From Candidatus Zymogenus saltonus (GTDB lineage Bacteria; Desulfobacterota; Zymogenia; Zymogenales; Zymogenaceae), in contig JAFGIX010000025.1 of NCBI GenBank assembly GCA_016929395.1, positions 27,720 to 91,719 of the forward strand: a DNA stretch of 64,000 bases, given 5' to 3'. This document shows positions 7,391-27,931 of the stretch, one piece after another. The stretch's first letter is position 1. Each line of letters starts with the position of its first letter. The position numbers were made by a program, and so were the translations under genes. Below the pieces are notes generated by a model that searched no databases, was not told where the DNA came from, and worked only from the letters and a program-made list of their open reading frames with translations.

Positions 7391-7489
7391 ATTGGGAAAT
7401 CGAGGCCTTGAGGATTTGTGGGGTAAAAAGGAGAAGGGTGTGGTTTGTGGTATATATTAAGTGATGACAAAAAAGGTGATGGGAGGAAG

Positions 7490-8911
7490 ATGAGAGTACT
7501 TATTGTCTCGGCAAACAGAGAGCTGGTTCCAGATCCGGTTTTCCCGTTGGGGGCGGCGTATGTCGCCTCGGCGGCGAGGGAATCGGGTCACGATACGGAT
7601 GTTTTGGATATATGTTTCGCGGATGACATTTCAAGAGAGGTCAAAGATAAAATATCGTCTTTTGGACCGGATCTTGTCGGTGTCTCGATAAGAAACGTCG
7701 ATAATGTCGCCTACCCCTTGGTTCTTACCTACGCCGAGGGACATAAAAACCTCATAGACGAGATACGCTCGTCCCACTTCGGTCCCATTGTGATGGGGGG
7801 GCCTGCCTTTACGCTGATGCCGGAGGAGTTTCTCGATTTCACGGGAGTCGAGATGGGGATACTGGGTGAGGGGGAAGATGCGATTGTGAAGCTTGCAGAT
7901 TCTCTGGAAAACGGGGGAAGCTTGGATAAAGTGCCCGGTCTCATTACAAGGGAGGCGGGCAAAACGCTGCAACGAAACGGAAACAAGACAAGGGTTGACG
8001 TCAACAAGATATGTACCCCCGCAAGGGATCTGCTCGATAGTGCCGCCTATCAGAAGTGGGGCGGCATGGTCGGGATACAGACAAAACGGGGATGTCCCAT
8101 CGACTGTATATATTGTACGTATCCGGTCGTGGAGGGGAAGGATATCAGATTGAGAGATCCGGGGGCCATAGTAGACGAGATAGAGAAAACCAACAAGGAG
8201 TACGGGGCGGACACCTTCTTTATTGTAGACAACGTATTCAATAACCCCCCGGAGCACGCAATAGAGGTTGCCGAAGAGATAAAAAGGAGAAAGATAGGCT
8301 TAAGGTTTTCGGCTTATATGAATCCGGGTTTTGTATCGGAGAGGCTGTTGGGGGTGCTTAAAGATGCGGGTTTTACAGGGGTCGACTACGGTGTGGATAG
8401 CCTTTCGGAGGGGGTGCTTAAAAACCTGAGAAAGAACTTCACGAAGGATAATGTGGTAAGGGCAGTCGAGTTGACAAGGGGGATGGGCATAGAGTGCTGC
8501 CTGAGCATGATATTTGGAGGCCCAGGGGAGACTCTCGACACGCTAAAGGAGACCGTCGATTCGATTGACGAGATTGCCCCGACGGCAGTCTTGGCAATCG
8601 TGGGAATCCGCCTCTATTCAGGAACGGGTATGCACAAGATCGCCAAAAGGGACAGGGTGGTCGGAGAAGAGGGAGTGGGATTGAAGCCGGTATTTTATAT
8701 ATCCCCGGATGTGGCCGATGAGGTGGTGGGCTTTGTGGCGGAGGCATCCCTTAAGCGCAACAACTGGCTCTTCCCAGGGCACATGATTATGGCCGGCCAG
8801 CAGCTTACACCGGATCAAAAGCCGGAGAGGTACGATCAGGGTCCCCTTGCGGAATTCAGGAAGCAGGGGATCAAGGGTAACCTGTGGGAGATGTTTGGCG
8901 CTATGAAATAG
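7490..8911 (+). CDS. B12-binding domain radical SAM enzyme (class B), paralog 2
   Basis: MRVLIVSAN..., IVMGGPAFTLMPEE, GILGEGED, then TKRGCPIDCIYCTY (CX3CX2C). Same architecture as the upstream gene. Start chosen at the ATG at 7490 within the 7445 ORF. Confidence 0.85.
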   Translation: MRVLIVSANRELVPDPVFPLGAAYVASAARESGHDTDVLDICFADDISREVKDKISSFGPDLVGVSIRNVDNVAYPLVLTYAEGHKNLIDEIRSSHFGPIVMGGPAFTLMPEEFLDFTGVEMGILGEGEDAIVKLADSLENGGSLDKVPGLITREAGKTLQRNGNKTRVDVNKICTPARDLLDSAAYQKWGGMVGIQTKRGCPIDCIYCTYPVVEGKDIRLRDPGAIVDEIEKTNKEYGADTFFIVDNVFNNPPEHAIEVAEEIKRRKIGLRFSAYMNPGFVSERLLGVLKDAGFTGVDYGVDSLSEGVLKNLRKNFTKDNVVRAVELTRGMGIECCLSMIFGGPGETLDTLKETVDSIDEIAPTAVLAIVGIRLYSGTGMHKIAKRDRVVGEEGVGLKPVFYISPDVADEVVGFVAEASLKRNNWLFPGHMIMAGQQLTPDQKPERYDQGPLAEFRKQGIKGNLWEMFGAMK

Positions 8912-8972
8912 TAGTGGAGACTTGACAATAAAATATAGAAGCGGACAATAACTTGTACTCGTAATATAGTAT

Positions 8973-11300
8973 ATGAACATTATCTTTATCTCATCTATCT
9001 TCCCGCCTGAATCCGGCGGGCCCGCGACCTACGTCAGGAGGCTGTCCCAGGACTTCCACAACAAGGGCCATCACGTAAAGCTCATCGCACTTTCTGAAAT
9101 AGAGATCGATGTAGATGACCCCCCTTATATAATCAGGATACCAAAAAAAGGCACGATATTTAGGAGGTCATTTAGACTTTTCAGGGCGGTTCTGAAACAC
9201 GGCAAGGATGTGGATATCATTTACGATAATGGAGGTCCCTGGGACACAGGCATACCGATTAGGTGGGCGAATATTTTTTTGAAAAAGAAATTGGTGACCA
9301 AGGTCGTTGGAGACAACGTCTGGGAATATGTGCGAAGAAACAGGTTGACAGATGACGGCATCAATGAATTTCAGGGTAAATTTTACGGTCCAAAGATAGC
9401 TCTCCTGAAGTACTTAAGAAATAAGACAACAATGGGCGCAGATTTAGTTATTACCCCGGGCCACTATCTGGCGGAGCTGGTGGCGGGCTGGGGTGTCAAG
9501 AGGGAAAATATCTCCGTTATTCACAATGCGGTTGATTTTAGCGAAAGGAACCAGGAGATACCAGAGATCATAAAGGGATGGGAGGGATCAAAGAAGATTA
9601 TAACCACCGCGGCAAGGCTGGTGCCCTGGAAGGGTATAGACGGCATAATAAGGGTAATTGCGGAGCTTGATAATGACGTCAATCTTTTGGTGATAGGAGA
9701 CGGCCCGGAGCTTTCAAACCTCAGAAAATTGACGGAAACCTTAGGGATAGACAAGAGGGTTCGCTTTACGGGACGTGTTACTCAAAAGGAAGTTCTCTCC
9801 CTCCTCTCACATTCCGACGTATTTGTCCTGAACACCGAATATGAGGGACTTCCCCATATTATCCTTGAGGCGTTCTCCGTCGGTGTTCCGGTGATTGCCA
9901 CCGATATTTGTGGAAATCCCGAGGTTGTTGAGAATGGTAAAAACGGCCTGTTGGTTCCTGTAAAGGATAATAAAGCGCTGAAGAATGCGATAATGAGGCT
10001 GATCAACGACACCGGATATTCAGCGAGGCTGGTTTCAAATTCAAGAGAGAGGCTTAATTACTTTGGATGGAACAGGCTTTTTGCACAAACGGAGAGAGTT
10101 TTTGACAGGCTTCTCAAGGGAATAAAGATCTTGTTCATAGCTTCTATCTACTATCCCGAATCGGGAGGTCCGGCCACTTACGTGAGGAACCTCGCCCACT
10201 ACCTTTACGGAGAGGGGCACAAGGTGAAGGTAATAGCCTTATCGGAGGTAAATAAGTTACCCGACGATCCTTTCTACCTTTCGAGAATTCCAAAAAGGGG
10301 GAGTATCTTTACAAGGTCTTTGAGCCTGTTTCTTTCTATTGTCAAGTATGGGCGGGATTACGACCTCCTCTACGATACGGGAGGAGGCCCCTGGGATACG
10401 GGCCTTCCGGTTCAAATGGCCAATTTTTTCTTGAGGAAAAGGCTCGCCATCAGGGTAGCTGGAGATATAGTCTGGGAATACGCCAGGAGAAACAGAATAA
10501 CAGTGGACGGACTCGACGAGTTTCAGCTGAAGTCTTACGGTCCCATAATCATGGTGATGAGACTCATAAGAAATTACTTTGCCAGGAGCGCCGACCTTGT
10601 AATATCGGGGAGTAACTACGTTGCGGGACTGACGAAGATATGGGGTGTAGACAAGAAAAAGATATCCGTGACACATAACGCCATCGAGCTGATAAATCCG
10701 AGAAAAATACCCACGCCGGAATTTGAAAAACCGAAGGGGGCGAGAAAGATCGTTGCCACAATAGCCCGCCTCGTTCCATGGAAGGGAATAGACGCCCTTA
10801 TCGAGGTTACGGCACAATTTCCGAAGGATATACACCTTTTGATAATTGGGGACGGACCCGAGAGAGAGAGACTTACGGATTTGGCAAAATCATTGAAGGT
10901 AATAAATCGGATTCACTTCATAGGAAGGGTGCCGAACGAGCAGATAATATCGTTTTTATCCTTCGCCGATGTCTTCGTCCTGAACACGGAATACGAGAGC
11001 CTCGCTCATGTAATTATCGAGGCGTACAACGCCGGTATCCCCGTAGTGGCAACAAATATCACGGGTAATCCGGAGATTATAGAAGACGGTAAGACAGGGA
11101 TCTTGGTTCCGTTGAAGGATAAAGACGCGCTGAAGGCGGCGATAGAGAGGATAATAACGAACAAAAAATTCGCCTCGAAAATTGTATCGGCGTCAAGGGA
11201 AAAACTCCCCTATTTCGGGCTCGAAAGGCAGTTAAAGGAGTCCGAGGAGCTTTTCAAGGATCTAATCTGGGGAAAAGAAGAAGGGAAAGCCGTGCGTTGA
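8973..11300 (+). CDS. Fused tandem GT4 (family 1) glycosyltransferase, two complete GT-B units in one 775-aa polypeptide
   Basis: Both halves start with I(F/L)FI(S/A)SI(F/Y)(P/Y)PESGGPATYVR. Each half carries the GT4 E-x7-E region (EGLPHIILEAFSVGVPVIATDICGNPEVVENGKNGLLV and ESLAHVIIEAYNAGIPVVATNITGNPEIIEDGKTGILV). Confidence 0.8.
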   Translation: MNIIFISSIFPPESGGPATYVRRLSQDFHNKGHHVKLIALSEIEIDVDDPPYIIRIPKKGTIFRRSFRLFRAVLKHGKDVDIIYDNGGPWDTGIPIRWANIFLKKKLVTKVVGDNVWEYVRRNRLTDDGINEFQGKFYGPKIALLKYLRNKTTMGADLVITPGHYLAELVAGWGVKRENISVIHNAVDFSERNQEIPEIIKGWEGSKKIITTAARLVPWKGIDGIIRVIAELDNDVNLLVIGDGPELSNLRKLTETLGIDKRVRFTGRVTQKEVLSLLSHSDVFVLNTEYEGLPHIILEAFSVGVPVIATDICGNPEVVENGKNGLLVPVKDNKALKNAIMRLINDTGYSARLVSNSRERLNYFGWNRLFAQTERVFDRLLKGIKILFIASIYYPESGGPATYVRNLAHYLYGEGHKVKVIALSEVNKLPDDPFYLSRIPKRGSIFTRSLSLFLSIVKYGRDYDLLYDTGGGPWDTGLPVQMANFFLRKRLAIRVAGDIVWEYARRNRITVDGLDEFQLKSYGPIIMVMRLIRNYFARSADLVISGSNYVAGLTKIWGVDKKKISVTHNAIELINPRKIPTPEFEKPKGARKIVATIARLVPWKGIDALIEVTAQFPKDIHLLIIGDGPERERLTDLAKSLKVINRIHFIGRVPNEQIISFLSFADVFVLNTEYESLAHVIIEAYNAGIPVVATNITGNPEIIEDGKTGILVPLKDKDALKAAIERIITNKKFASKIVSASREKLPYFGLERQLKESEELFKDLIWGKEEGKAVR

Positions 11301-11331
11301 CGGCAGATCTATAAAATAAAAAGCCCTGCCG

Positions 11332-12309
11332 CTACCAAGGATTTTTAAACCACTCGATGAATCTCTCGACGCCTTCCTTCATGGACGTGTTTGGATTATA
11401 GCCTAAAAGACTCCTTGCCTTTTCTATATCCGCAAAAGTGCGTTTTACATCTCCCGGCTGGCGGGGCAGCATGACCTTTTCGGTCTCCTTTCCCAGTCCC
11501 GATTCGATCAATTCTATAAGCTCTAAAAGATTAACGGACACCGACTCCCCCAAATTTATTATCTCATAGAAGGGCGTGGTCTCGGATGATATGAAACCAA
11601 ACGCGCCAATCAGCCCGTCTATTATATCATCGATATATGTGTAATCCCTGCTCCCCTTCCCCTGATCGTACACCTCTATTTTAGATCCGTTGTTTATCAG
11701 GTTTGTGAACTTGTGGATCGCCATGTCCGGACGCTGTCTCGGCCCGTATACGGTGAAAAAACGAAAGCAAAGAATCTTCAGGTTGTACAGCTTGTGATAG
11801 GTGTAGCAAAGCTCCTCACAGCATTTCTTGGTAACGCCGTAGGGGGATATCGGCTTGGCCATGAGGTCGTCCTCCGAAAAGGGGATGTTGGGACAGTCGC
11901 CGTAGACGGAGGATGAGGAGGCAAAGAGGAGGTCCTTAATATCGAGCTCCTTCATGGCCTCGAGGATATTGTTTGTGCCGAGGACGTTCACCTCCTGATA
12001 GAGGAGAGGATTCTTTATGGAGGGTCTTACGCCTGCCTTTGCGGCGAGGTGTACAACAAGATCGGGGGAGATCGACCTGAAGGAGTCGATTATAAAATCG
12101 TAGTTCCTGATATCCCCCTCAATGAGCTTAAACCCATCCTTTTTCAGGAGGGATTCAATATTTCTCCTTTTGAATTTCTCGGGATAGTAGTCGTCGAAGT
12201 TATCGATTACGAAAACCTCATTCCCAAGGGAAACGAGCCTATCCGAAAGGTGCGATCCGATAAAGCCCGCACCGCCTGTAACCACTACTTTTTTGATATC
12301 TTTTGACAT
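11332..12309 (-). CDS. NAD-dependent epimerase/dehydratase, extended SDR (UDP-sugar 4-epimerase/UDP-glucuronate epimerase-like)
   Basis: VVVTGGAGFIGSHL Rossmann motif, YxxxK context (YGVTK) and a length of 325 aa. Confidence 0.85.
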   Translation of the reverse strand: MSKDIKKVVVTGGAGFIGSHLSDRLVSLGNEVFVIDNFDDYYPEKFKRRNIESLLKKDGFKLIEGDIRNYDFIIDSFRSISPDLVVHLAAKAGVRPSIKNPLLYQEVNVLGTNNILEAMKELDIKDLLFASSSSVYGDCPNIPFSEDDLMAKPISPYGVTKKCCEELCYTYHKLYNLKILCFRFFTVYGPRQRPDMAIHKFTNLINNGSKIEVYDQGKGSRDYTYIDDIIDGLIGAFGFISSETTPFYEIINLGESVSVNLLELIELIESGLGKETEKVMLPRQPGDVKRTFADIEKARSLLGYNPNTSMKEGVERFIEWFKNPW

Positions 12310-12368
12310 ATTTATCTTTGAATACAGAATTTAAATAAAGATGTGAATTCTAATTGAAAAAGACGCTG

Positions 12369-13013
12369 TTACCTCTTCCTTTTCAGCGTGTATATTTTGC
12401 TCTTTTCCACCCCGAGCTCGCTTAGAGATGAGATCCTTTCCTTAACCTCTTCAGTATGTAGGATGAGAATTGCATCAAATGAAAAATCCCTGATCTCAGA
12501 CAGTGGTGAGATCTTCATCTCAAGGCAGAGGCCGCCTGCCCTGTCGTCCACGATTCCGACAATCTCAATTTCGTTTACCCTTGAAAATAAGACCGCAAGC
12601 TCCGCTATCTCGCCTGTGCCGTAAAGGAGTATATTATCGATGCCGTCGACCCTTATCTCACTCAGCACCTCTTGAAGGGAATCCTTGAGCTCCCTGTAGA
12701 ACCTGAGGGAATACCTGAGGTACTCATAGGTGAGACGGGTCTTTTCAGCTATCCCCTTCGGAGTGAGCATATACTTGACGCGGTGGGAGGGGATGGTCGT
12801 GGCCTTGAAATACCCTTTCTCCACAAGCCTCTTTATAAAGCGGTTGACAAGCCCCACGGAGATGTCGATCTTCTGGGAGAGGGTCCTCTGGCTGATGGTA
12901 TTATCCCTCTCTATCTCCTCCATTATACGGAGCGTTCTTATCTCCTCTCTGTCCACATCGATCTCCAAAACGTTCAACGAGTAAACAATATCAAATACTA
13001 TAGGTTTTGTCAA
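12369..13013 (-). CDS. Winged-helix plus Rossmann-like regulator (Rex-like architecture)
   Basis: wHTH segment ISQRTLSQKIDISVGLVNRFIKRLVEKGYF, then ILLYGTGEIAELAVLF...IEIVGIVDD, resembling the Rex NAD(H)-sensing fold. Embedded in the glycosyltransferase cluster. Confidence 0.45.
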   Translation of the reverse strand: MTKPIVFDIVYSLNVLEIDVDREEIRTLRIMEEIERDNTISQRTLSQKIDISVGLVNRFIKRLVEKGYFKATTIPSHRVKYMLTPKGIAEKTRLTYEYLRYSLRFYRELKDSLQEVLSEIRVDGIDNILLYGTGEIAELAVLFSRVNEIEIVGIVDDRAGGLCLEMKISPLSEIRDFSFDAILILHTEEVKERISSLSELGVEKSKIYTLKRKR

Positions 13014-13156
13014 AAAAAATTGTATAAAAAAGATTTAAATAAAGCGGGCCGAAAAGCGGTAATTTTGAAATATTAAGAATATCAGGTTGCAGTTAAAGTC
13101 GATATTGAGTATACTTTGAAAAATAATCTTCAGGAAAATATTTAGGGGAATATGCC

Positions 13157-14290
13157 TTGGCACACAGAATCCTGCACATTCAAAAGATAACGGGAATCAG
13201 CGGCTCCGAAAACCACCTTGTAGACCTCATGTCCAACCTTGACAGAAATAGGTTTGAGCCGACTTTTCTGGGGCTGGTAGAACCGAACAACCGCGTGGAT
13301 GACTATTTTGACATACTTGAATCGAGGTCTGTTCAAGGAGAGAGGATAGTGATCAGATCGCACCTTGATTTATCATGCCTTATGGAGATTGTGCGGTTCA
13401 TCAAGGGCGGGAGTTTCGACATAGTCCACACCCACCTGATCCACGGCGATATCTACGGCATCATGGCGGCGGTGATGGCCCGCGCCCCACACATCATCTC
13501 CTCGAAGCACGGTTACGACAACTACGACAAAACGAGCCACTTTTATAAAATAAACGGCCTGTTCAGCTTTTTCGTTAAGAGGGTGATAACGATCTCGGAC
13601 GCCCTGCAGGACAAGGTCAACAAGAGCGACATGATACCGAAAAAAAAGATGGTGACGGTCCATTACGGTCTCGACTGGGAGGGGTATCTGAAAAGGTCGA
13701 AGGCAACAGGCGAAAGGGTGAGGAAGGAGCTGAACGTGGGGGAGGGGATCTTCACGTTCGCCTCGGTAGGGAGGCTGGTGGACGTCAAGGGTTACCCGTA
13801 TCTGATCGAGGCGGCGGCAAGGATGAAGCGGGAGGGATATAAAGATTTTACGGTATTTATTATGGGGGACGGGCCCTTGAGGGAAGAGCTTACCAAAAAG
13901 GCCCACGACATGGGTGTAGGGGATGTGGTAAGGTTTCTGGGGAGGCGCGAGGACGTGTCGTCGATCCTTTCAATATCTGACGCCTTCGTCCTGCCGACGC
14001 TGGGGGAGGGATTCGGCCTGGTCCTTCTCGAGGCGATGGCCCATAGGCTCCCCGTCATATCAACATCCACGATGTCCATACCCGAGATCGTGGTCGAGGA
14101 GGAGACGGGCTTACTCGTCCAGCCTAAGGACCCGGAGGGGCTTGCCAAAGCGATGGGGCGCCTCATGAAAGAGCGGGCCGAGTCCAAAAGAATGGGCGAG
14201 GCTGGATTTGAGCGGCTTAAGGAGAAGTTCACGATCCCGGAGATGGTCAGAAAGACCGAACAGATTTACGAAGAAGTCCTCGGGATTTAG
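13157..14290 (+). CDS. GT4 (family 1) glycosyltransferase
   Basis: EGFGLVLLEAMAHRLPVISTSTMSIPEIVVEEETGLLV E-x7-E motif and a GT-B layout. Confidence 0.85.
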   Translation: MAHRILHIQKITGISGSENHLVDLMSNLDRNRFEPTFLGLVEPNNRVDDYFDILESRSVQGERIVIRSHLDLSCLMEIVRFIKGGSFDIVHTHLIHGDIYGIMAAVMARAPHIISSKHGYDNYDKTSHFYKINGLFSFFVKRVITISDALQDKVNKSDMIPKKKMVTVHYGLDWEGYLKRSKATGERVRKELNVGEGIFTFASVGRLVDVKGYPYLIEAAARMKREGYKDFTVFIMGDGPLREELTKKAHDMGVGDVVRFLGRREDVSSILSISDAFVLPTLGEGFGLVLLEAMAHRLPVISTSTMSIPEIVVEEETGLLVQPKDPEGLAKAMGRLMKERAESKRMGEAGFERLKEKFTIPEMVRKTEQIYEEVLGI

Positions 14291-15822
14291 TCCTTCGTCC
14301 TCCTGAACTTCCTGTTCATGGCGAGGATGAAGAGGGAGAGTATGGTGGCACTAATAATAGTCTGAACTCCCCTTATAAATGGGGCCAGAGGGCTTTTTAA
14401 CAAATCGTAAATAGGTTTGACCTTACCGAGTGTTAGCAAGTCAAGGCTTATCATAATTCCGTTGTAGGTGTTGAATAAGAATCCCACATCGTCTTTACCG
14501 TTGTAGTTAATGCCAATTATGAGAGAATAAATAAGGCCGAAAAGGAGCCAAAATCCAATCAACCACAGTAGCGCCCTTACCGGCCTCTCGCCGTAGAGGG
14601 AGATCCACTTGTAGAGGGTTAGCGCCTTTCTGATTATCCACTTTTCCCGCGTTCCCTTCCTTCGCATCTCCATGGCGCCGACAAAGAAGTCCCCCGCCTC
14701 GTGGTATCTGCCGCTCCTCTCGTAATTGAGCCGAAGCTGATTGTAGAGTTGTTGGACATGATAATGATTTCCTGCATCCTTTACTTTTCCCCTAAGAAAC
14801 TCCTCATCGTAAATCTCAATACGTTTAAAGATGTTCTTAAGAGATGTTACAAATTTTTCCAATATATTTTTTACATCCCAACTATTAGAGGGTGAACTTT
14901 GATTGAAATCATCATTTACTGCTACTTCTTCAAATAAATCTTTTTCAGTATAAGTTTGATTAACCCAGAAAACCTCCTTAAATTTAATATAACTAATATC
15001 CGTTCCTAAAAAACGGCAACGATTTAGGTCAACACCATCGAAGGTTACTTTGTCCGGTCTCTCGAATGAGACACCAAAAAACTTTGCTTTGTTTTCGTTG
15101 TAGAAAGTTTTTCCCTCAAATTTAACCTCACCTTTGCCTGAGAATTCAGCATAATTAAAAATTGTCCAATCATTGTCTGAGTCTTCGATATCCTCCAAAG
15201 CGTCTCCCCTTCCTTGACGGTATGGTAGACCCCCGGCCCCGTCGCACAGGCTCCCAGTGTTATAAGGAGTAACATCAGGACAACAGTGGAAACGGCCTTT
15301 ATTGAATTTTGCACCACTAAAGATTGTACCACCTTCGCCAGAGAATTTTGCATATCTGAAGCTTGTTCCCTCATCGCCAAAGAATTCTGTCCCAACAAAG
15401 TTTATCATTCCCTTGCCGGAGAATATTGCTTCACCGAAGTCTGTACCCATATTACCTAAAAATTTTGCCCTACTGAAGTCAGTCCCGCAATTACCGTAAA
15501 ATTTAGCATCAGATAAATCTACATCGCATAGAAAGCGAGCATGTGAGAAATTTGCATTCTCGAATTCAAGGCCATTAGTTGATTTAGAGTCATTACGCAA
15601 CCTTTTAAAATCAAAACTTTTTGGAAAAACAAAGCCCCTGAAATCATGTTTACCAGATTCGTACAATTTCTTGAATTCTTCATAAAATTTCTCAACGTTC
15701 TTATCTTCCCTCCAACTGTGGAAAATACATTTCTTTTTACCATCCCTATCTGCTTCTTCTATCGCAATGTGATTACAAAATTCTACAAGCCAAGGATAAT
15801 ATTTATATTCACACTTCGCCAT
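14287..15822 (-). CDS. Pentapeptide-repeat protein with a C-terminal two-TM channel-like membrane domain
   Basis: Long run of pentapeptide repeats (ENANFSHARFLCDVDLSDAKFYGNCGTDFSRAKFLGNMGTDFGEAIFSG...), then a C-terminal hydrophobic pair (ALLWLIGFWLLFGLIYSLIIG and TIISATILSLFILAM) with an intervening re-entrant-like segment. Confidence 0.7.
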   Translation of the reverse strand: MAKCEYKYYPWLVEFCNHIAIEEADRDGKKKCIFHSWREDKNVEKFYEEFKKLYESGKHDFRGFVFPKSFDFKRLRNDSKSTNGLEFENANFSHARFLCDVDLSDAKFYGNCGTDFSRAKFLGNMGTDFGEAIFSGKGMINFVGTEFFGDEGTSFRYAKFSGEGGTIFSGAKFNKGRFHCCPDVTPYNTGSLCDGAGGLPYRQGRGDALEDIEDSDNDWTIFNYAEFSGKGEVKFEGKTFYNENKAKFFGVSFERPDKVTFDGVDLNRCRFLGTDISYIKFKEVFWVNQTYTEKDLFEEVAVNDDFNQSSPSNSWDVKNILEKFVTSLKNIFKRIEIYDEEFLRGKVKDAGNHYHVQQLYNQLRLNYERSGRYHEAGDFFVGAMEMRRKGTREKWIIRKALTLYKWISLYGERPVRALLWLIGFWLLFGLIYSLIIGINYNGKDDVGFLFNTYNGIMISLDLLTLGKVKPIYDLLKSPLAPFIRGVQTIISATILSLFILAMNRKFRRTKD

Positions 15823-15917
15823 TTTAAGGCCTCATTTCTGTAAATATATGATGCAAAAAGATATATTGGAGGGGGAACAGAATCTTCCTCCTTACGGACA
15901 AACAAAAAGTCAACTAA

Positions 15918-17156
15918 CTACCTCCCCAACCCCTTCGCTATCGCCCGGAATACCTCGATCGTCTCGAGCTCCCTGTCGAAGCCGTCCACGTCGTAGTGGG
16001 CGTAAGCCGAGGTCTTTGCGATAACGACGTTATACTCCGGGTGGACGTACAAAAACTGGTTGTAGACACCTATCCCAAGGAAATCCCCCTCGGGGTTTTG
16101 AGGAATCCACCACTGGTAGCCGTAGCCGAGGACCCAGTCGGAAGCGGGATTGTCCCCCGGCATGAGGTGGGGGGCGTCCGGCGTGATAGAAGCCTTGACC
16201 TAATCCCTTGGCACGACCTGCTCGCAGTTCCAGCCGCCGCCGTTAAGATAGAGGCGGCCGAAGCGGGCGTAGTCGCGCAGGACGACGTTCAGCCCGCCGA
16301 AGGCGAGCTCCATCCCCTTGCCGTCGGTGAGGAAGTAGGCATCGGACTCCATCCCGATCTTTTTCCAGATCTTCTCTTCGAGATAAGACGACAGGTTTTG
16401 CCCCGTGGCCTCCCTCAAGACCATACCTAAAACCTGGGTGTCCATGCTGACGTAGTGGTTGTACGTTCCCGGCTCCCGCTCATTGATGAGGGACGCCACG
16501 AACTTGTCCAGCGACAGGTTCAGCGCGATTACCCTCCCCATCCTGTTGATGTCCGAGAAGAAGTCGAAGTAGTCCTCGTTGAAGCGGATGCCGGACGACA
16601 TCTGGAGGACGTCCTTTATCGAGACGCCGTCATAGCCGGTGCCTTTAAGCATCGGGACATAGTCGGAGACGGGATCGGCGATGTCCTTGATGTACCCCTC
16701 GTCGACGGCAATCCCCACCAGGGCCGAGACGAACGACTTCGCCACCGACCAGGAGATCGCCTTCGACTCCTCACTGTTTCCGAGGTAGTACTCCTCGAAG
16801 ACGATTTTGTCGTCCAAGATGACTACAAGTCCAGTGGTCCAGGTGTCTTCAAGAAACTTATTGATATTTTTGGTCTCCCCGTTGTAGACGTACGTCTCGG
16901 GAAGCTTCATCTCGGCCCTTCCGAACTCGTACGTGGTGTCGCCCCTGTGGACAACCCTGTAGTCGATGAAGCCTCCCATACTTCTGAAGTTCTCCACGAT
17001 GACGTCCTCGTCGAAGAGGGTGATGACCTTATAGAGCCTTATCAGCTCCTTGTGATAGATTGCCCCGAGGGCGACGAGGACAACAAGGAGGATGACAACG
17101 GCCTTGAAAAGCTTTGACAGGAATACGCCTTTTTTTCCTGTTTTCTTTTTGCTCAT
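15918..17156 (-). pseudogene. Beta-lactamase-family serine hydrolase interrupted by an in-frame TAG (codon at 16200-16202)
   Basis: The N-terminal ORF (16200..17156) and the C-terminal ORF (15918..16163) are in the same frame. The sequence reads ...WNCEQVVPRD-TAG-VKASITPDAPHLMPGDNPASDWVLGYGYQWW. Family homologs have Trp at the stop position (DWV). Confidence 0.6.
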
Positions 17157-17193
17157 GATTTTCTCCTTTAAAAAATAATTTCTATTATGGATA

Positions 17194-17985
17194 TTATCTC
17201 TGAAGCACAGGAACGTCCGGCATCTTTCGCTTGAACTCAGATTTTTCTATCAGGTTTTTGATAGCAGAAATCTTTGCCTTCGGTATTCCGAGAGCCTCAA
17301 TCTCGTTTTCCGCGCTCTTCAGCTCGATCAGGTGGTAAAGGATTCTGTCGGCTGTGAGATAGTCAATACCCAACTCACCCTCATCCGTCTGCCCCTCCCA
17401 GAGGTCGGCCGTTGGCGCCTTTTCGACAATTACCTTGGGAACGCCCATGAGATTTGCCATCATCCACACCTCGGTCTTGTAAATCGCCCCGAGGGGGTTG
17501 AAGGCCGATGCCGAATCTCCGTGGATCGTGCTGTATCCGAGCATTGTCTCGGTCTTGTTCGACGTCCCGAGGACGAGGGAGCCCCCCCTCTGGGCCTGAT
17601 CGTATAGGATGGACATCCTCTCCCTCGCCATCTTGTTTCCTCTCCTTACGTGATCGGCGTCCGGGAAACGGACGAAGTAGGCGTCCACCATCGGCGTTAT
17701 ATCGATGATCATAGTCTCTATGCCGAGCTTATCCGCCGAAAGCCCGGCGTGTTCGAGGCTCGCAGGGGAAGATGATTTATAGGGCATTAGTATCCCGGTC
17801 ACGTTCTCAGGCCCCAGGGCCTCCGCCGCCAGAAAGGCCCCGAGGGTGGAATCGACGCCTCCGCTCATCCCCAGGACAACCTTTTTAAATCCTTTTTCCG
17901 ACATCATATTTCGTATGAAATCAACAAGGGTCGTACGAAATTCCACGACCAAATCCAAAGAAAACTCTTTCGGGTAATCTCTCAA
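17194..17985 (-). CDS. nadE: NH3-dependent NAD+ synthetase
   Basis: PP-loop VVLGMSGGVDSTL and a length of 263 aa. Confidence 0.85.
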   Translation of the reverse strand: MRDYPKEFSLDLVVEFRTTLVDFIRNMMSEKGFKKVVLGMSGGVDSTLGAFLAAEALGPENVTGILMPYKSSSPASLEHAGLSADKLGIETMIIDITPMVDAYFVRFPDADHVRRGNKMARERMSILYDQAQRGGSLVLGTSNKTETMLGYSTIHGDSASAFNPLGAIYKTEVWMMANLMGVPKVIVEKAPTADLWEGQTDEGELGIDYLTADRILYHLIELKSAENEIEALGIPKAKISAIKNLIEKSEFKRKMPDVPVLQR

Positions 17986-18432
17986 ATTGTTCCTCTCTAA
18001 AAAAATGGCAAATAGTTATATAGGAAGCCTTTATAAAGATATATTAAAATAAAAAGATCGTCAAGTTTCTTTGGAAAGATGAGAGATTATAAAAAGATGC
18101 GCTGAACCACAGTTGAAATGAGATTAAAAAGGGAGGAGAAATACGTATTGTATTGACGTAAAAAGTTTTTGTGGATAAAATATAATTGAAAGGAAAGCTC
18201 ACAAAGTTACAATTTTGTTAAAAAGGCGATATATCGGAGTGTTGGATGGTGATATTTGAGGTGAATTTGTTGATCGGAAGGAGGTTGACAAACCACTAAC
18301 ATTAATACAAATTGTGATAATGATTACATAAAACATTAGAGCAGTATTGTAAATTAAGTTAAATTATGCTATAATTTTAAAGAATTATAAAATATTAAAA
18401 ATTTACATAAAGGATGTTGCAAAGCACAGTCC

Positions 18433-20271
18433 ATGTCAGACGACTTCAGTATCCAGAAGCATCTGGAGGCGATTAGAAATATTTCCGAGTCTTCCACGAA
18501 GAGCGGCGGGGCTATTTCTGTTTTAAGGGCTGTTTCCAAAGAGATTGTTGAGACTCTGGGCTACGGAAGGGTGATCATCGGCCTAAAGAACAGGAACTCC
18601 CTTGTCATGCGCTTTAGATTGGGAGGTGAAATTGGACGTGATGATAAAGATTTAAGGAAGACACTTCAGAATATCCCCGCCGTAACCCTGAGACCGGACA
18701 ATGATGATAGGCTGAGCGCCTCGGCATATGCCCTTTTAAAAGACACCTCGGTTATCGTAGAAGATTCAAACAGGTATGGTTTTAGAGAAAACGAGACATT
18801 CCAGGACGAGGAGCTTATAAAAAGCCTGGGTTTGAAATCGTATATCATCATTCCCATTACATTAGGGAATGAATCCATCGGTGTTATCATTATTGACGAC
18901 AAGTATATTTCACGTAAGCTAAATGATAATGACATAGCCAATATCAATGCCTTTTCTGATAACATTTCAGTTTCAATTGTAAATGCGAGGAAGTTCGATA
19001 TTCTTAAGAGGTCTCACGCAAAGATTAATGCTGTAAAAAAGGAGCTGCTCAGATCCCAGAGGATGTATCGTCTGATTATAGAAAGGGGAACTGATGCCAT
19101 ATTCATTATTCAGAATTACAGGATCGTCTTCGCAAACAGGATGCTTCAAAAGCTCCTTGGGTACGAGACAAAGGAGATAATCGGCAGGGACTTCTCGGAT
19201 TTCGTTTCGACTGAATCGAAACAATATCTTGTAGATTCATACGAAAACGCTTACAGAAAGAAGGCGCAGACGACCCAGTACGAATATTACGTCATCAAGA
19301 AAGATGGTTCAAAGATCGCCATATGGATGACCACATCCTTGACGCGCTACAACAATCAGCTTGCAATTCTGTGCTTCGCGAGGGATATAACCGAAAAGAA
19401 GAAATCCGAATCTGAATTGAGTGAGGCTAAAGATTACCTCGAAAACATTATAGAGAGCGCCAACGATATTATTTATGTGCTTGACAGGAGCGGGAGATTT
19501 ACATACCTCAATCCAAAGATGGAGGAGTTCGGATACAGAAGGGAGGATCTCATAGGGAAATACTTTCTCGAGGTCCTCTCGAATAGACACAGGGGCAGAA
19601 GATTCAGGAAGACCTTAAGGGAAGGGGTGAGACAGGTCTACGAGGTTGAGATGCTTGAAAGTGACGGAAAAAGCATAAGGAACGTGGTAATCAGCACCTC
19701 CCCCCTTTTCAATGATAAGAGCAAAATAGAGGGTGTTCTGGTCGTGGGAAAGGATATAACCGACAGGAAGAGGGTGGAAGAGAGATTGAAACGCCTCACC
19801 ATCACGGACAGCCTGACGGGTCTTTACAACCGAAGGCACTTTTTTAAGACATTAAGAGAAAATCTGGTATCGGCCAGAAAGGAATCATTTCCAATGTGTC
19901 TTATGATGCTGGACATCGATGACTTCAAGGTATTTAATGATACATATGGACATTTGGCCGGAGATGAAGTTCTTCGTACCTTTGGGAAGATTACTACGAA
20001 ATCGATACGCTGTAATGTTGACCTCGCCTTTAGATACGGCGGAGACGAATTTGCAATAATTCTTCCCAATGCCAAGAAGGAAAACGCTGAAAAGATCGCA
20101 TCCCGTATAACTCAGAAATTTGAGGAAAACTTCGGCGATCTGGAAATAAGTATCGGAATTTCCTCCTTGGACAACCATAAATCGATAGAAGAGCTTATCG
20201 ACACCGCGGATAATGCCATGTACGCCGCAAAGAGCAAGAAGAAGACACAGATTAGAACTCATAAGAACTAA
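18433..20271 (+). CDS. Sensor diguanylate cyclase (GAF plus PAS plus GGDEF)
   Basis: RYGGDEFAII GGDEF motif at the C-terminus, upstream PAS-like repeats and an N-terminal GAF-like region. Confidence 0.85.
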   Translation: MSDDFSIQKHLEAIRNISESSTKSGGAISVLRAVSKEIVETLGYGRVIIGLKNRNSLVMRFRLGGEIGRDDKDLRKTLQNIPAVTLRPDNDDRLSASAYALLKDTSVIVEDSNRYGFRENETFQDEELIKSLGLKSYIIIPITLGNESIGVIIIDDKYISRKLNDNDIANINAFSDNISVSIVNARKFDILKRSHAKINAVKKELLRSQRMYRLIIERGTDAIFIIQNYRIVFANRMLQKLLGYETKEIIGRDFSDFVSTESKQYLVDSYENAYRKKAQTTQYEYYVIKKDGSKIAIWMTTSLTRYNNQLAILCFARDITEKKKSESELSEAKDYLENIIESANDIIYVLDRSGRFTYLNPKMEEFGYRREDLIGKYFLEVLSNRHRGRRFRKTLREGVRQVYEVEMLESDGKSIRNVVISTSPLFNDKSKIEGVLVVGKDITDRKRVEERLKRLTITDSLTGLYNRRHFFKTLRENLVSARKESFPMCLMMLDIDDFKVFNDTYGHLAGDEVLRTFGKITTKSIRCNVDLAFRYGGDEFAIILPNAKKENAEKIASRITQKFEENFGDLEISIGISSLDNHKSIEELIDTADNAMYAAKSKKKTQIRTHKN

Positions 20272-20291
20272 AATCCTTCTCAAAAAAACAG

Positions 20292-21380
20292 ATGATTACA
20301 AGAAGACAAACCAGGGCCATAAGTGTCGGGGATGTGAGAATCGGCGGGGAGAATCCGGTTGTGGTTCAATCGATGACAAAGACCGACACGAAAGACGTCA
20401 AGGCGACCCTCTCCCAGATTGAAGATCTGTATAAAAGAGGCTGTGAGATTGTGAGGGTGGCGGTCAAGGATATGGATGCGACTTCGGCGTTGAAGGAGAT
20501 CGTTAAGGAGTCCCCCGTTCCGATAATTGCCGATATACACTTCGATTATCTCCTTGCAATATATTCAATGGAGGCGGGGGCCAAGGGAATAAGGATAAAT
20601 CCGGGAAACATCGGAGGCAGAGAGCGGCTGCTTAAAATAATCGATCGCGCCCGGTTGGATAATGTGGCGATACGTATCGGCGTGAACTCCGGGTCGCTGG
20701 AAAAGGAGATACTAAATAAGCACGGCGGGCCGACACCAAGGGCCATGGTGGAGAGCGGACTGAATTGCCTCAGGATATTTGAAGATTCAGATTATACAAA
20801 CACCAAGTTCTCTCTGAAGTCCGCAAACGTAATGGACACGGTTTACGCCTACAGGGAGTTTTCAAAGGTTTGCGATTATCCCCTTCATTTGGGGGTAACG
20901 GAGGCTGGGACGGTTTTCAAGGGTGCAGTAAAATCCGCCGTGGGCATAGGCATTCTGCTATATGAAGGGATCGGAGACACGATAAGGGTAAGCCTGACGG
21001 GAGATCCCGTAAAAGAGGTGATATGCGCCTACACGATCCTTTCGGCCCTCGGAATCAGAAAGAGGGGGGTCAATGTCATATCGTGTCCTACGTGCGGCAG
21101 GACCGAGATAGATATTGTAAAGATAGCCGACGAGGTGGAAAGAAGACTTGAGGGACTGGACCTTAATATAACCGTTGCAGTGATGGGATGCGAGGTAAAC
21201 GGGCCAGGGGAGGCAAGAGAGGCCGATGTGGGAATCGCCGGGGGCAAGGGTATGGGCCTTTTATTCAGGAACGGCAAGGTAATTAAGAAGGTAAAGGAAG
21301 CAGAGCTTTTGGATGAGCTCATCAAAGAAGTTGAAAAGATAAGGGCAGAAAACGAGTCTCATGAGGCCGGTTGTCACTGA
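20292..21380 (+). CDS. ispG: 4-hydroxy-3-methylbut-2-en-1-yl diphosphate synthase (flavodoxin)
   Basis: TRAISVGDVRIGGENPVVVQSMTKTDTKDV and a C-terminal CPTCGRTEIDI Fe-S motif. Confidence 0.9.
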   Translation: MITRRQTRAISVGDVRIGGENPVVVQSMTKTDTKDVKATLSQIEDLYKRGCEIVRVAVKDMDATSALKEIVKESPVPIIADIHFDYLLAIYSMEAGAKGIRINPGNIGGRERLLKIIDRARLDNVAIRIGVNSGSLEKEILNKHGGPTPRAMVESGLNCLRIFEDSDYTNTKFSLKSANVMDTVYAYREFSKVCDYPLHLGVTEAGTVFKGAVKSAVGIGILLYEGIGDTIRVSLTGDPVKEVICAYTILSALGIRKRGVNVISCPTCGRTEIDIVKIADEVERRLEGLDLNITVAVMGCEVNGPGEAREADVGIAGGKGMGLLFRNGKVIKKVKEAELLDELIKEVEKIRAENESHEAGCH

Positions 21381-21417
21381 TACTAACAAAGTGTTTGATA
21401 CTTAATGTACTTTTCAA

Positions 21418-23568
21418 ATGATAAGGCTGAACGAAATATTAGATAAGGTTCGAGATTACAATCCCAAAGGCGATCTCGATGTTATAAAGCAGGCATACGT
21501 GTTCTCAGCCATGGTGCACCAGGGACAGGTGCGGCTTTCCGGAGAGCCCTATCTATCTCACCCCCTGATGGTGGCGTCTCTCTTGGCCGACCTGAACATG
21601 GACGTCCCTTCGGTGGCGACGGGCCTTCTGCACGATACGGTCGAGGATACCCTTACTACTATAGAACAGATAGAGGAGACATTTGGAAAAGAGATTACCC
21701 TGCTTGTGGACGGCGTTACTAAAATCAGCAGGATGAGCTTTTCCACCCAGGAAGAGAGGCAGGCCGAGAATTTCAGAAAGATGATCATAGCCATGACGAA
21801 GGACATTCGGGTGCTTCTGATAAAGCTTACGGACCGCCTGCACAACATGAGGACGATTCAATTTCACAACTCGGAAAAGCGGAAGATCATCGCCCAGGAG
21901 ACGCTCGATATCTACGCGCCTCTGGCAAACAGACTTGGGATAGACTGGATTAAAAACGAGCTCGAAGACCTGACGTTCCTCGTTCTCCAGCCCGATATAT
22001 ACAGATACTTGCTGAAAAAAGTTGAATCGAAAAGGAGAGAGCTAGAGAAATACAGCAGCGCTGTTATGAAAATAATCGAAAAGGAGCTGAACAAAAACGG
22101 GATCAAGGCGCGTCTCCAGAATAGGATAAAGCACCTTTACGGAATACACAATAAGATGGTGATCCAGGAGATAGGGTTCGACGAGATTTATGATCTCGTC
22201 GCCTTCAGGGTCATTGTCGACACGATAAGTGACTGCTACGGCGCGATGGGGATAATCCACTCTCTCTGGAAGCCTGTCCCGGGGAGGATCAAGGACTTCA
22301 TCGCGATGCCCAAACCGAACATGTATCGAAGCCTCCACACAACGGTGATCGGTCCCAAGGGGGAGAGGATAGAGATACAGATAAGGACAGAGGAGATGCA
22401 CAAGATCGCCCAAAAGGGGATAGCCGCCCACTGGCGTTACAAGGAGATGAAAGGACAGGTAAAACAGCAGGATCAGGAGAGCTACGACTGGCTCAAAAGG
22501 CTTTTCGAGTGGCAGCAGGACGTGAAAGACCCCAGGGAATTCATAGCGACCGTCAAGATAGACCTGTTCCCGGAAGAGGTGTATGTATTTACTCCAAAGG
22601 GGGACGTTAAGGCCTTCCCAAGGGGGGCGACGCCGTTGGATTTCGCCTACAGTATCCATACGGACATAGGAAATACGTGTTCCGGTGCGAAAATAAGCGG
22701 TAAGATAGTGCCGTTGAAATACAAGCTCCAGAACGGCGATACCGTTGAGATAATAACGAACAAGAGCCAGAAGCCGAGCAAGGACTGGCTCCGCTCCGTT
22801 GCCACATCAAAGGCTAAACAGAAGATAAAGCATTGGTTCATAACGGAGCAAAGGGAGAGGAGCATTAGCCTGGGGAGGGAGATCCTTGAAAAGGAATTCC
22901 TTAAGAACGGTCTTAGTTTCCAGAAGAAGCAGAAATCGAGGCAGATGAACGAGGCGATGGAAAAGCTCAAGGCGAATAGTCTGGAAGAACTCCTGTCCAA
23001 GGTCGCAAATGCAAAGATAACGGTATCGGAGGTTTTGGAGTTTTTCATCCCGAAGGAAGATATCAAGGACACGGTAGATATTGAATCCATTCAGAAAAAG
23101 GAGATTAAGAAGGGGAAAAAGGAAAGGAGCAGCAGCGGAGTTTTGGTCAGCGGAGTGGACGATGTCATGGTCAGGTACGCCAAGTGCTGCAACCCGTTGC
23201 CTGGGGACAGAATAGTCGGATTTATAAGCCGCGGAAGAGGACTTACCATTCATAACTCCGAGTGCTCCAACCTTCTGGAATTTCCTTCGGAGCGCTTGAT
23301 CGAAGTAGGGTGGGACACCAAGGACAAGATGGGGGTATACACGAGCAGAATTTTGGTATCGTGTGAAAACAAGAAAGGAGTTCTCGCGTCCGTCGCAACG
23401 GCGATATCTGAGGCGGACGCGAACATCAGCAACGTTGAATTAACTACCGAAGATAATAAGGCAAATTTTCTTTTTCACCTGGAGGTCGTCGACCTCGATC
23501 ATTTAAACAGGGTTATTGGTTCGTTGACGAAAAAGAAGAGCGTCATAAGTGTAAAGAGGATGACCTGA
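21418..23568 (+). CDS. relA: Bifunctional (p)ppGpp synthetase/hydrolase RelA/SpoT
   Basis: HD domain (HPLMVASLLADLNMD, HDTVEDT), RelA_SpoT synthetase region, TGS and a C-terminal ACT domain. Length 716 aa. Confidence 0.9.
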   Translation: MIRLNEILDKVRDYNPKGDLDVIKQAYVFSAMVHQGQVRLSGEPYLSHPLMVASLLADLNMDVPSVATGLLHDTVEDTLTTIEQIEETFGKEITLLVDGVTKISRMSFSTQEERQAENFRKMIIAMTKDIRVLLIKLTDRLHNMRTIQFHNSEKRKIIAQETLDIYAPLANRLGIDWIKNELEDLTFLVLQPDIYRYLLKKVESKRRELEKYSSAVMKIIEKELNKNGIKARLQNRIKHLYGIHNKMVIQEIGFDEIYDLVAFRVIVDTISDCYGAMGIIHSLWKPVPGRIKDFIAMPKPNMYRSLHTTVIGPKGERIEIQIRTEEMHKIAQKGIAAHWRYKEMKGQVKQQDQESYDWLKRLFEWQQDVKDPREFIATVKIDLFPEEVYVFTPKGDVKAFPRGATPLDFAYSIHTDIGNTCSGAKISGKIVPLKYKLQNGDTVEIITNKSQKPSKDWLRSVATSKAKQKIKHWFITEQRERSISLGREILEKEFLKNGLSFQKKQKSRQMNEAMEKLKANSLEELLSKVANAKITVSEVLEFFIPKEDIKDTVDIESIQKKEIKKGKKERSSSGVLVSGVDDVMVRYAKCCNPLPGDRIVGFISRGRGLTIHNSECSNLLEFPSERLIEVGWDTKDKMGVYTSRILVSCENKKGVLASVATAISEADANISNVELTTEDNKANFLFHLEVVDLDHLNRVIGSLTKKKSVISVKRMT

Positions 23569-23918
23569 TATTTGGATTCAGGTTGATCGTTATTTATGAG
23601 GGGTCGGGATGTGAGGGGATGTCGTGTGAGTAAAATATCCATAAGGCCAATAGGACGTCCGCCGACGGAAATCGGGGGATAGGGTCTTATTGGGGTCAGG
23701 GAAGACGGCAGGGCCAAAGAAGCCGGAGGGCATCCAATTTCTAAAACTTTCTTACCAAAAAACAAGTACCTGTTTTCAGCGGGGGTCAAGAGAGCCGGCG
23801 GGGTGTAAGGAAGCGGAAAGCAAAATTCATCTTTTTTTAAATTGTCTCTTAAAATAATAATTGTCGCCGCCCTGAGTGGATCTGACTTGAAAAAGATTCG
23901 GAAATGTATCAACTCCTG

Positions 23919-24022
23919 AGGCCCGTTAGGCGGGAGGAGTACTAAAGGCTCATGCCCTCACCATCTACTACTCAGGCCCGTTCGGCGGCGGGGAGGACCG
24001 CAGGCTTAGGCCCTCACCACCT
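23919..24022. repeat. Tandem ~48-bp direct repeat (2 copies) overlapping the last codons of rpmB
   Basis: GGCCCGTTAGGCGGGAGGAGTACTAAAGGCTCATGCCCTCACCATC versus GGCCCGTTCGGCGGCGGGGAGGACCGCAGGCTTAGGCCCTCACCACC. Confidence 0.5.
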
Positions 24023-24194
24023 TTTCCGAGCGGAGACAGCGCGTACAGACCTTCGCCTTTATCACCTTGTTTCCGATCTTGATTCGCATGGTATGGATAT
24101 TGGGGTACCATCTCCGTTTTGTCTTGTTGTGGGCGTGGCTTACGTTATTTCCAACGACGGGCCCTTTCCCGCAGATATCGCAAACTCGACTCAT
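24006..24194 (-). CDS. rpmB: 50S ribosomal protein L28
   Basis: [32 protein letters not shown]... is the L28 signature. Length 62 aa. Confidence 0.9.
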
Positions 24195-24280
24195 CGTTTG
24201 TCTCTCCTGATAGTTGGACCGATAATATATTTACAGAATTGATTATTTTACCAAATTCTATGAGAAAATCAAGATAAAAT

Positions 24281-25138
24281 ATGAAAAAAAATAAGGATAT
24301 GGGCATTTTATATGTGGTTGCAACCCCGATAGGAAACCTAAAGGACATCACCATAAGGGGGCTTCAGACGCTCAGAGACGTGGATTTTATAGCCGCGGAA
24401 AACATAAAAAGGGCAAAAAAGCTCCTTTCGGTATATGACATAAAAACCAAAATAATAAGCTATCGGGAGGAGAACAGGGAGCGGGCAACAAGAATGATAA
24501 TTGATAAGATAAACGACGGGAAGAATATTGCCCTTATCTCGGATGCGGGCACGCCGACTGTGTCCGATCCAGGGGACTACCTTATTAAAAAATGCGTCGA
24601 GGGGGGAATTCCCGTGGTGCCCGTTCCCGGTCCGTCTTCAATAATCTGTGCCCTCTCTGTATCAGGACTCGATACGTCCGAGTTTTCTTTTCTGGGATTC
24701 CTTGCGAGAAAGGGGAAAAAGAGGTTGGAACAAATCTCGAAAATTGAAGGTGATGGGAGAACTTCGGTCATATTTGAATCGCCGAAGAGGATTGCCAAAA
24801 CCTTAAGCGATATTTTAAACATTATTGGAGAAAGAAAAGCGGCCGTTTGCAGGGAGCTCACAAAGCTAAACGAGGAGGTGATAAGAGGCTCTCTGTCCGT
24901 TATAATTGACGAGCTTGAAAAGAGGGGAGAGATCAAAGGGGAGATAGTGCTCATGGTTTCGGGAGGCGGGGGTATAAGAAGCAGGTTGGACAGGGATGAC
25001 TTAATCAGTGAGGTAAAGAAGTACGTCGAGCAAAATCCTGAAAAGAAGACCAAAGAGGTCGCAAAGATATTGGCAGCAAGGCTCGGGGTCTCCGTCAAGG
25101 AAATTTATAAGATCGCGGTTGGGGAAAGGGAAGACTAA
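24281..25138 (+). CDS. rsmI: 16S rRNA (cytidine1402-2'-O)-methyltransferase
   Basis: LYVVATPIGNLKDITIRGLQTLRDVDFIAAE and a tetrapyrrole-methylase-like fold. Confidence 0.85.
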   Translation: MKKNKDMGILYVVATPIGNLKDITIRGLQTLRDVDFIAAENIKRAKKLLSVYDIKTKIISYREENRERATRMIIDKINDGKNIALISDAGTPTVSDPGDYLIKKCVEGGIPVVPVPGPSSIICALSVSGLDTSEFSFLGFLARKGKKRLEQISKIEGDGRTSVIFESPKRIAKTLSDILNIIGERKAAVCRELTKLNEEVIRGSLSVIIDELEKRGEIKGEIVLMVSGGGGIRSRLDRDDLISEVKKYVEQNPEKKTKEVAKILAARLGVSVKEIYKIAVGERED

Positions 25139-25680
25139 AGCAATTCTGGAAATAGTAAAGATATTGATTGTAGAGCCCGGAGTCTCTGTCAAGGATATTT
25201 ATTAAATAGTAGACAAGGATAGTAGAGACTAAATCCGCTTTGGAAATCTTAAAGCTATAAGCCGTGGAGACTGATGACTTCGTCATGGGCGTTTATGAAT
25301 GAAATAGAAGACAGGGAAGGGAAGAGGAAAACAGGTTCTGGAAATCGAAAAAGCATAGACCGCAAAGCTAAAGGCTTCTTTCATGGACGTTTGCAACTGA
25401 AACAGCGGTTAAGGAGGGGAAGAGGCAATAGGATTTTGAAAATTGCAAAGATGAAGGACGCAGAGCCTGGAGACTCCGTCGTGGAACTTTATGAAACAGC
25501 AGTTAAGGAGATGAGAGACTAAATCTATTCAAAAAGTCGCAATGATGAAGACCGCAAAGCACGGGGTTTATTTAAGGGACATTTGTGACTGAAACAACAC
25601 CTTAAAGCCAGGGGATTTCATAAAGGGCATTAATTAGTGAAACAGCGGTCAAGGAATTGAAAAAACAAACAGGTTTTTAT
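25085..25680. repeat. Degenerate tandem-repeat array that begins inside the 3' end of rsmI and repeats its last ~57 bp twice more
   Basis: Copies ending in GA(G/C)ACTAA(A) at 25085-25140, 25177-25233 and 25448-25506. Additional ~55-bp sub-repeats ending in GAAACAGCGGTTAAGGA. Confidence 0.55.
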
Positions 25681-25687
25681 ATGGAGT

Positions 25688-27922: not shown

Positions 27923-27931
27923 AGGAAAGTC

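Follow-up and report, generated by a model that had tools for sequence, protein, structure and literature searches.

Whether the in-frame TAG in a serine hydrolase gene is a genuine nonsense mutation, a stop that is read through or edited, or a fault of the data was the question raised by this locus. The DNA analysed, a stretch of 64 kb (hereafter, the window), belongs to Candidatus Zymogenus saltonus, a MAG (Zgenome_24, JAFGIX01) recovered from the anoxic, sulfidic sediment at Zodletone Spring (bioRxiv 10.1101/2021.03.22.436540). The stop is probably a real and young TGG>TAG nonsense mutation, which has left an accessory hydrolase gene as a pseudogene or a null allele.

Structure and ancestry of the interrupted hydrolase gene

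The whole interrupted gene (15918..17156, minus strand) comprised 412 codons and encoded a membrane-anchored, class C beta-lactamase-related, NylB-like serine hydrolase. Its codon 319 was an in-frame amber TAG (16200..16202, minus strand), for which the sequence and the orthologs gave TGG (Trp319) as the ancestral state. The N-terminal ORF (16200..17156, minus strand) encoded 318 aa with the TM anchor and the part of the fold that contains Ser137-x-x-Lys140. The stranded C-terminal part (15918..16199, minus strand) had 93 codons, namely 12 codons at 16164..16199 and an 81-aa ORF at 15918..16163, and the gene reached its natural terminus at a second TAG (15918-15920, minus strand). The minus strand around the stop read GTG CCA AGG GAT TAG GTC AAG GCT TCT ATC ACG. 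The ORFs 16200..17156 and 15918..16163 were in a common frame with one TAG as the sole stop between them, and the 12 sense codons at 16164..16199, VKASITPDAPHL, kept the hydrolase homology going from the TAG up to the first ATG. That ATG, at 16163, encodes the internal Met332 of the intact hydrolase and is no real start.

The joined 412-aa protein was matched by the PF00144 (Beta-lactamase) profile over the whole catalytic domain, at residues 108-392 with the stop included (1.3e-31; 110.4 bits with a cut-off of 27; profile positions 15-317 of 329). The Ser-x-x-Lys nucleophile motif (S137-V-A-K140) was invariant among the 22 aligned sequences and aligned with SVxKS in 8rlj and NylB. These were the top PDB relatives, i.e., 8rlj (6e-60), a class C beta-lactamase-related serine hydrolase, and 1wyb (4.7e-42), the NylB 6-aminohexanoate-dimer hydrolase. 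A second block, GYGYQWW (G344-Y-G-Y-Q-W-W350), was invariant in the homologs and is encoded in the stranded C-terminal codons. The C-terminal part of the domain was not encoded in an uninterrupted frame, as the TAG at codon 319 removes 93 residues with GYGYQWW among them.

The ancestral state of the stop column was explored in proteins and in DNA. Thousands of full-length homologs of the joined hydrolase (404-413 aa) were found in a search of 5.8 billion protein clusters, the best with identities of 90, 89, 84 and 83%. The orthologs had 411-413 aa and at most 90% identity, and their C-terminus lay at the matching ...GLGR residue. The closest database proteins were all full length and all had W at the stop column, which was Trp in 21/21 aligned homologs in the context [D/G/S/A/E]-W-V, and the sequences of 8rlj and 1wyb retained it as well (EGWV and EDWV, respectively). 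A GTDB scan with one genome per species gave 71 loci, 68 of which aligned across the stop column; the codon was TGG in 59, TAT/TAC in 8, TTC in 1 and TAG in 0. The window's own genome was absent from these results. Tyr or Phe occurred at this column only in relatives with less than 37% identity. The 90%-identity ortholog was syntenic with the window (NadE, hydrolase, GGDEF protein, GcpE, RelA/SpoT), and its DNA read GAC TGG GTC in three independent assemblies. TGG was also found at the column in a second relative with 89% identity, and the ancestral codon was TGG in every syntenic ortholog.

No other instance of the stop was encountered. A degenerate DNA pattern with TAG at the hydrolase column and the conserved flanks had 0 matches in JGI metagenome contigs; in the control, the TAG form of the pattern recovered the window and the TGG form recovered 11 of the fetched loci. 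The window hydrolase allele had 0 matches in JGI metagenomes in either its TAG or its TGG version, and no intact (TGG) copy of it was found in the protein-cluster search, where the top match was 90%. On the aligned sequences, one G>A transition in the coding strand, which the plus strand shows as C>T (CCCA>CCTA), produced the hydrolase TAG, and the change appears in this lineage only. A sense codon in the orthologs together with a stop limited to one lineage, the pattern of a pseudogene, was thus found at the hydrolase. The earlier note had proposed two ORFs of one hydrolase family in a common frame and a conserved Trp changed from TGG to TAG. Its coordinates, frame and family agreed with the minus-strand reading and with the PF00144 match that spans the stop, and its Trp column and codon change agreed with the homolog alignment, the GTDB genomes and the GAC TGG GTC of the syntenic orthologs.

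Composition changed sharply from gene to gene around 15001..18500. The hydrolase gene (57% GC) is adjoined by a 511-aa ORF (14287..15822, minus strand) in a 41% GC stretch, which had a repetitive N-terminal half, a hydrophobic C-terminus and no Pfam match, and the start of the GGDEF gene at 18433 was AT-rich (36% GC).

Further lesions, source of the sequence and age of the stop

A second in-frame TAG was located at 55772..55774 on the minus strand, as the earlier note had anticipated in speaking of two Trp-to-amber changes within 64 kb. It interrupts a gene for a CrtI/phytoene-desaturase-like FAD oxidoreductase with a lipoprotein-type N-terminus (54572..56209, minus strand; 545 codons, with the TAG as codon 146). 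The TAG joins the ORFs 55772..56209 and 54572..55684 into a 545-aa protein, in which the Pfam Amino_oxidase match covered residues 47-536 and whose homologs had 538-545 aa. The GenBank protein MBN1572582.1 is the C-terminal fragment of this interrupted oxidoreductase. The stop column was aromatic and not strictly Trp (W 9, F 9 and Y 2 in an alignment with 20 homologs). The closest ortholog, from the sister species, was 80% identical, syntenic and intact, and had the ancestral TGG at the column (GGG TGG GAC). An intact tandem paralog with 65% identity was present at 56235..57845 (minus strand). The gene cluster (54143..58577, minus strand) contained a MerR gene (57894..58577), the two tandem oxidoreductases, both of which had lipoprotein-like N-termini, and a cytochrome c3 gene (54143..54562), and this order was kept in the sister species. 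No real genes split by a single in-frame stop were found in a six-frame scan of the window beyond the two ambers.

A third lesion was of a different type. The gene for a Fer4_16 iron-sulfur protein (59563..60266, plus strand) was frameshifted by +2 nt near 59895-59898, and its counterpart in the sister species was intact with 220 aa. In the DNA alignment, the insertion gave the ORFs 59563..59976 and 59904..60266 in differing frames; a tblastn search with the sister protein against the window likewise gave two HSPs in differing frames, and the Fer4_16 domain was detected only in the second ORF (59904..60266). The frameshifted gene is separated from the interrupted oxidoreductase by 4 kb and shares its neighbourhood of MerR, oxidoreductase paralogs, cytochrome c3 and SDR genes. 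With a third gene broken by a +2 frameshift, the decay of genes in this region is not a matter of TAG alone.

The domain-bearing ORFs that were scanned or Logan-annotated (TopA, DprA, LigA, RelA, GcpE, NadE and others) had full-length domain matches, and several other ORFs of the window had no Pfam match. A 1021-aa protein at 48977..52042 (plus strand), with no Pfam match at 1e-5, was 90% identical in the sister species; this large conserved protein directly follows a radical SAM gene (48088..48960) in both genomes. At 5777..8911 (plus strand), a pair of neighbouring genes for B12-binding radical SAM proteins of 537 and 488 aa stands beside genes for an epimerase and for a double GT4 glycosyltransferase of 775 aa, a cluster that looks like one for cell-envelope or glycan modification.

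Zgenome_24 was assembled with MegaHit from Illumina HiSeq 2500 reads, and according to its description the class of Candidatus Zymogenus is rare in most of the settings in which it occurs (bioRxiv 10.1101/2021.03.22.436540). The Logan contigs of run SRR13394437 were 100% identical to the window at 1..14231, 15214..16458, 16434..31234, 44572..56561 and 56532..62547, and extended only about 1.7 kb past it. The contig at 15214..16458 holds the hydrolase TAG and that at 44572..56561 holds the second TAG; all three lesions were reproduced. Since both assemblies come from the same reads, their identity excludes an assembler artefact and does not exclude a population polymorphism. Breaks between Logan contigs were observed at both ends of the 1,245-bp piece bearing the hydrolase TAG, at about 15214 and at 16434..16458 inside the hydrolase gene. 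They suggest branching of the assembly graph, with a related strain or species in the sample sharing k-mers.

The TAG could be a data artefact or a minority allele missing from the dominant cells, most of which would have TGG; it could have come from a low-coverage consensus error, from DNA damage, which would account for a plus-strand C>T at each amber site, or from a segregating variant picked by the assemblers. Coverage may be modest for an organism described as a rare member of its community, each amber is a C>T change when read on the plus strand, the break at 16434-16458 hints at related sequence in the sample, and the window allele is known from one sequencing run only. Nevertheless, this account is unlikely. 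MegaHit and Logan were 100% identical over 15214..31234 and 44572..62547 with all three lesions included, no Logan break lay within 230 nt of the hydrolase TAG, and the TGG version of the allele was assembled nowhere in the protein-cluster search. Substitution errors of Illumina sequencing are random and are lost in the consensus. Moreover, the third lesion, an insertion of 2 nt where the sequence is not repetitive, is not of the damage type, and the lineage-specific spectrum had no excess of C>T or G>A. In the three-taxon comparison, the window branch had 12 G>A and 13 C>T changes, a symmetric spectrum like those of the two sister branches. On this symmetry, a G-to-A hypermutation or deaminase signature was rejected. 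Codons 319, 321 and 324 had looked like a G>A cluster, but it dissolved, as K321 and I324 were common in other homologs.

The age of the hydrolase stop was evaluated from selection on either side of it. The pairwise dN/dS of the hydrolase was 0.064-0.079 downstream of the stop and 0.114 upstream, and the downstream value was not above that of the control pair. Along the window branch, the 93 downstream codons had 2 conservative nonsynonymous and 11 synonymous changes, for which P was about 1e-5 to 7e-5 under neutrality. Hence, the relaxed selection after the stop (dN/dS near 1) that marks a pseudogene was not seen at the hydrolase, and a pseudogene with these values can only be a young one. 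The values for the oxidoreductase were 0.10 upstream and 0.12 downstream of its stop. Because selection downstream is intact, the stops must be either very recent, relative to a lineage-specific divergence of roughly 5%, or not inactivating.

Termination, read-through and editing at TAG

The use of TAG was surveyed across the window. The 51 non-overlapping long ORFs of the window ended in TAA (19), TGA (18) and TAG (14); when the two in-frame cases were left aside, TAG ended 12 of 49. Both interrupted genes themselves end in TAG, the hydrolase at the last residue of its sister ortholog and the oxidoreductase one residue beyond. TAG coincided exactly with the C-terminus of the sister ortholog in at least 5 genes, including the hydrolase; further TAG-ended genes that matched the sister ends were 26305..26940, 48088..48960, 53347..53676 and 58792..59556. 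No backup stops were found near the TAG terminators, the median distance to the next stop being 13 codons, as compared with 7-8 for TAA and TGA. Among about 17,400 in-frame codons, 2 were TAG and 162 were TGG. TAG was thus not depleted as a terminator, and neither in-frame TAG was present in any relative, so the recurrent, conserved in-frame TAG of a reassigned UAG was lacking. Wholesale reassignment of TAG was rejected on its terminator usage and on the match to the C-termini of orthologs. The earlier note had argued in the same direction from TAG as a genuine terminator elsewhere in the window, and the 12 other long ORFs and the matching ortholog ends sustained that argument.

Partial read-through is a narrower proposal. 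A weak amber suppressor, e.g., a duplicated tRNA-Trp with a CUA anticodon, would insert Trp at UAG, so that TGG>TAG changes would be tolerated and pile up at Trp codons while release factor 1 still ended most TAG stops. Both nonsense lesions were TGG>TAG, with none to TGA or at another amino acid, exactly as a suppressor predicts; furthermore, the undiminished purifying selection 3' of both stops is equally expected from read-through, and the truncated genes showed no further decay. The terminator data argue against this proposal, in that TAG ends about 1/4 of the ORFs without nearby backup stops and ends both affected genes at the C-terminus of the ortholog or one residue past it, and read-through of the hydrolase terminator would append at least 40 residues. 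Had TAG been neutral at Trp codons along this branch, we estimate that some dozen of the 162 in-frame TGG codons would have been altered, not 2, and TAG was at neither column in any relative examined. The search for a tRNA with a CUA anticodon that the earlier note had called for was run on the window and found none, the only tRNA being Val-CAC; an Rfam search of the window gave tRNA only. The frameshift, finally, shows that plain gene decay is under way in the window. Partial UAG read-through to Trp is hence quite improbable, and its more specific form, a recently arisen suppressor of low efficiency that would place this free-living bacterium at an early, ambiguous-decoding stage of stop-codon capture, with nearly neutral TGG>TAG changes just beginning to build up, is slightly more improbable again.

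Pyrrolysine is encoded by TAG in some sulfate-reducing and related Deltaproteobacteria, and the hydrolase gene, intact apart from its in-frame TAG and found in a relative of the Desulfobacterota, recalls such cases. However, no pyl genes, tRNA-Pyl or methylamine methyltransferases were found in the window, and the hydrolase column was an invariant Trp in the aligned homologs and not a conserved TAG. Pyrrolysine is also absent from the genome paper (bioRxiv 10.1101/2021.03.22.436540). That the TAG encodes pyrrolysine is barely conceivable.

Premature stops in some fungi are restored by A-to-I editing of the mRNA. An analogous event in the window, with TadA or another deaminase converting UAG into UIG that is read as UGG (Trp), would restore exactly the ancestral amino acid through the changed A. 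The two sites were also alike around the TAG at the RNA level (AGGGAU(U)AGGWCAA). In the DNA, the amber sites at 16196..16207 and 55766..55778 (minus strand) had in common AGGGAT(T)AGG-W-CAA-S-GC, both with CCCA>CCTA on the plus strand; from the Trp codon on, TGGG-W-CAA-S-GC was found at both, with 10/12 bases identical. A site-specific mutational or editing motif, TGGGWCAA, was considered and rejected, for the window has four intact copies (33011+, 44932+, 42195- and 57431-), of which that at 57431 is the equivalent Trp codon of the tandem paralog; the likeness on which editing would draw is therefore not specific to the amber sites. The known editing of bacterial mRNA from A to I needs YUACGAA in a stem-loop that resembles the anticodon arm, and a change of the +1 C abolishes it; of the TadA recoding events reported in the same paper, nearly all are Tyr>Cys or Thr>Ala (PMC12255301). 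The sites in the window, UUAGGUC and AUAGGAC, each had 3 mismatches from YUACGAA, the +1 position among them, and neither TAG lay in a significant hairpin (z of +1.6/-0.7 for 61 nt and -0.5/-0.2 for 121 nt). Neither TAG thus showed the YUACGAA loop of a TadA site, and editing as the cause has a very small probability, below that of read-through.

The earlier note had asked whether suppression, a systematic G-to-A error or editing might underlie the two amber changes. None gained ground. Suppression found no CUA tRNA in the window and TAG terminators that were neither depleted nor backed up; the G-to-A error was countered by an independent assembly of the same run with 100% identity and by the nearly equal counts of G>A and C>T; and editing failed on the site sequences and on the hairpins. 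Moreover, none of the three would explain the third lesion, because that lesion is a +2 frameshift.

Proposed origin and comparison with known systems

The young nonsense mutation would be a TGG>TAG transition that the Candidatus Zymogenus saltonus population at Zodletone Spring acquired recently, in which a dispensable, membrane-anchored hydrolase would be cut at residue 318 of 412. Translation would end at this TAG through normal termination by release factor. The truncated product would keep Ser137-x-x-Lys140 and lose the last 93 residues; because the invariant GYGYQWW block goes with them, the product is predicted from the fold to be inactive. The oxidoreductase TAG would have arisen independently, through another G:C>A:T transition, a common class of mutation, in a gene that has an intact tandem paralog, and the frameshifted Fer4_16 gene would be a third ordinary lesion.

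Some observations count against the reading as an ordinary pseudogene. Two of two nonsense lesions were exactly TGG>TAG, and this particular result is improbable; for two nonsense mutations at the codon usage of the window, the probability of both being TGG>TAG was 0.0006 with equal rates and 0.01 with a strong G:C>A:T bias. The corresponding probability was about 0.07 for two nonsense events on some common codon path and about 0.14 for some common amino acid. The coincidence is mildly surprising, and it was noticed only after the fact. In addition, the two amber sites were alike in local sequence, and three lesions in about 50 genes are on the high side for a free-living bacterium.

The result bears mainly on annotation, in which the two hydrolase ORFs are to be treated as one serine-hydrolase pseudogene and MBN1572582.1 as a fragment of the interrupted oxidoreductase. 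Several fresh lesions are thereby placed in genes of the genome that typifies Candidatus Zymogenia. Wider interest would follow only if the suppressor proposal were true, since to our knowledge there is no documented case of a free-living bacterium at an ambiguous, intermediate stage of capturing UAG.

The locus was compared with several known systems. The hydrolase belongs to the same fold family as NylB and 8rlj, shares the Ser-x-x-Lys motif with them, and has as its mutated column one that is Trp in both structures; unlike them, it has an N-terminal membrane anchor and is interrupted in this genome. With TAG-recoded phages and Pyl-decoding organisms, the window shares an in-frame TAG in otherwise functional-looking genes; it differs from them in that TAG still ends genes often and verifiably, in-frame TAG makes up only 2 of about 17,400 codons, no suppressor tRNA was seen in the window, and the TAG is not shared by relatives. 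TadA recoding from A to I also involves an A whose deamination would alter the decoded amino acid, whereas the YUACGAA stem-loop that it requires was missing at both sites. TGG>TAG is a classic amber mutation, and single G:C>A:T nonsense transitions are known to make bacterial pseudogenes. The hydrolase resembles these in its one base change confined to one lineage, its intact syntenic orthologs, the accessory nature of the gene and the lesions of other types nearby. It is unlike the typical nonsense pseudogene in that one codon change recurs in two of the three lesions within 64 kb and in that selection downstream is not relaxed, indicating that the mutation is very young or still polymorphic.
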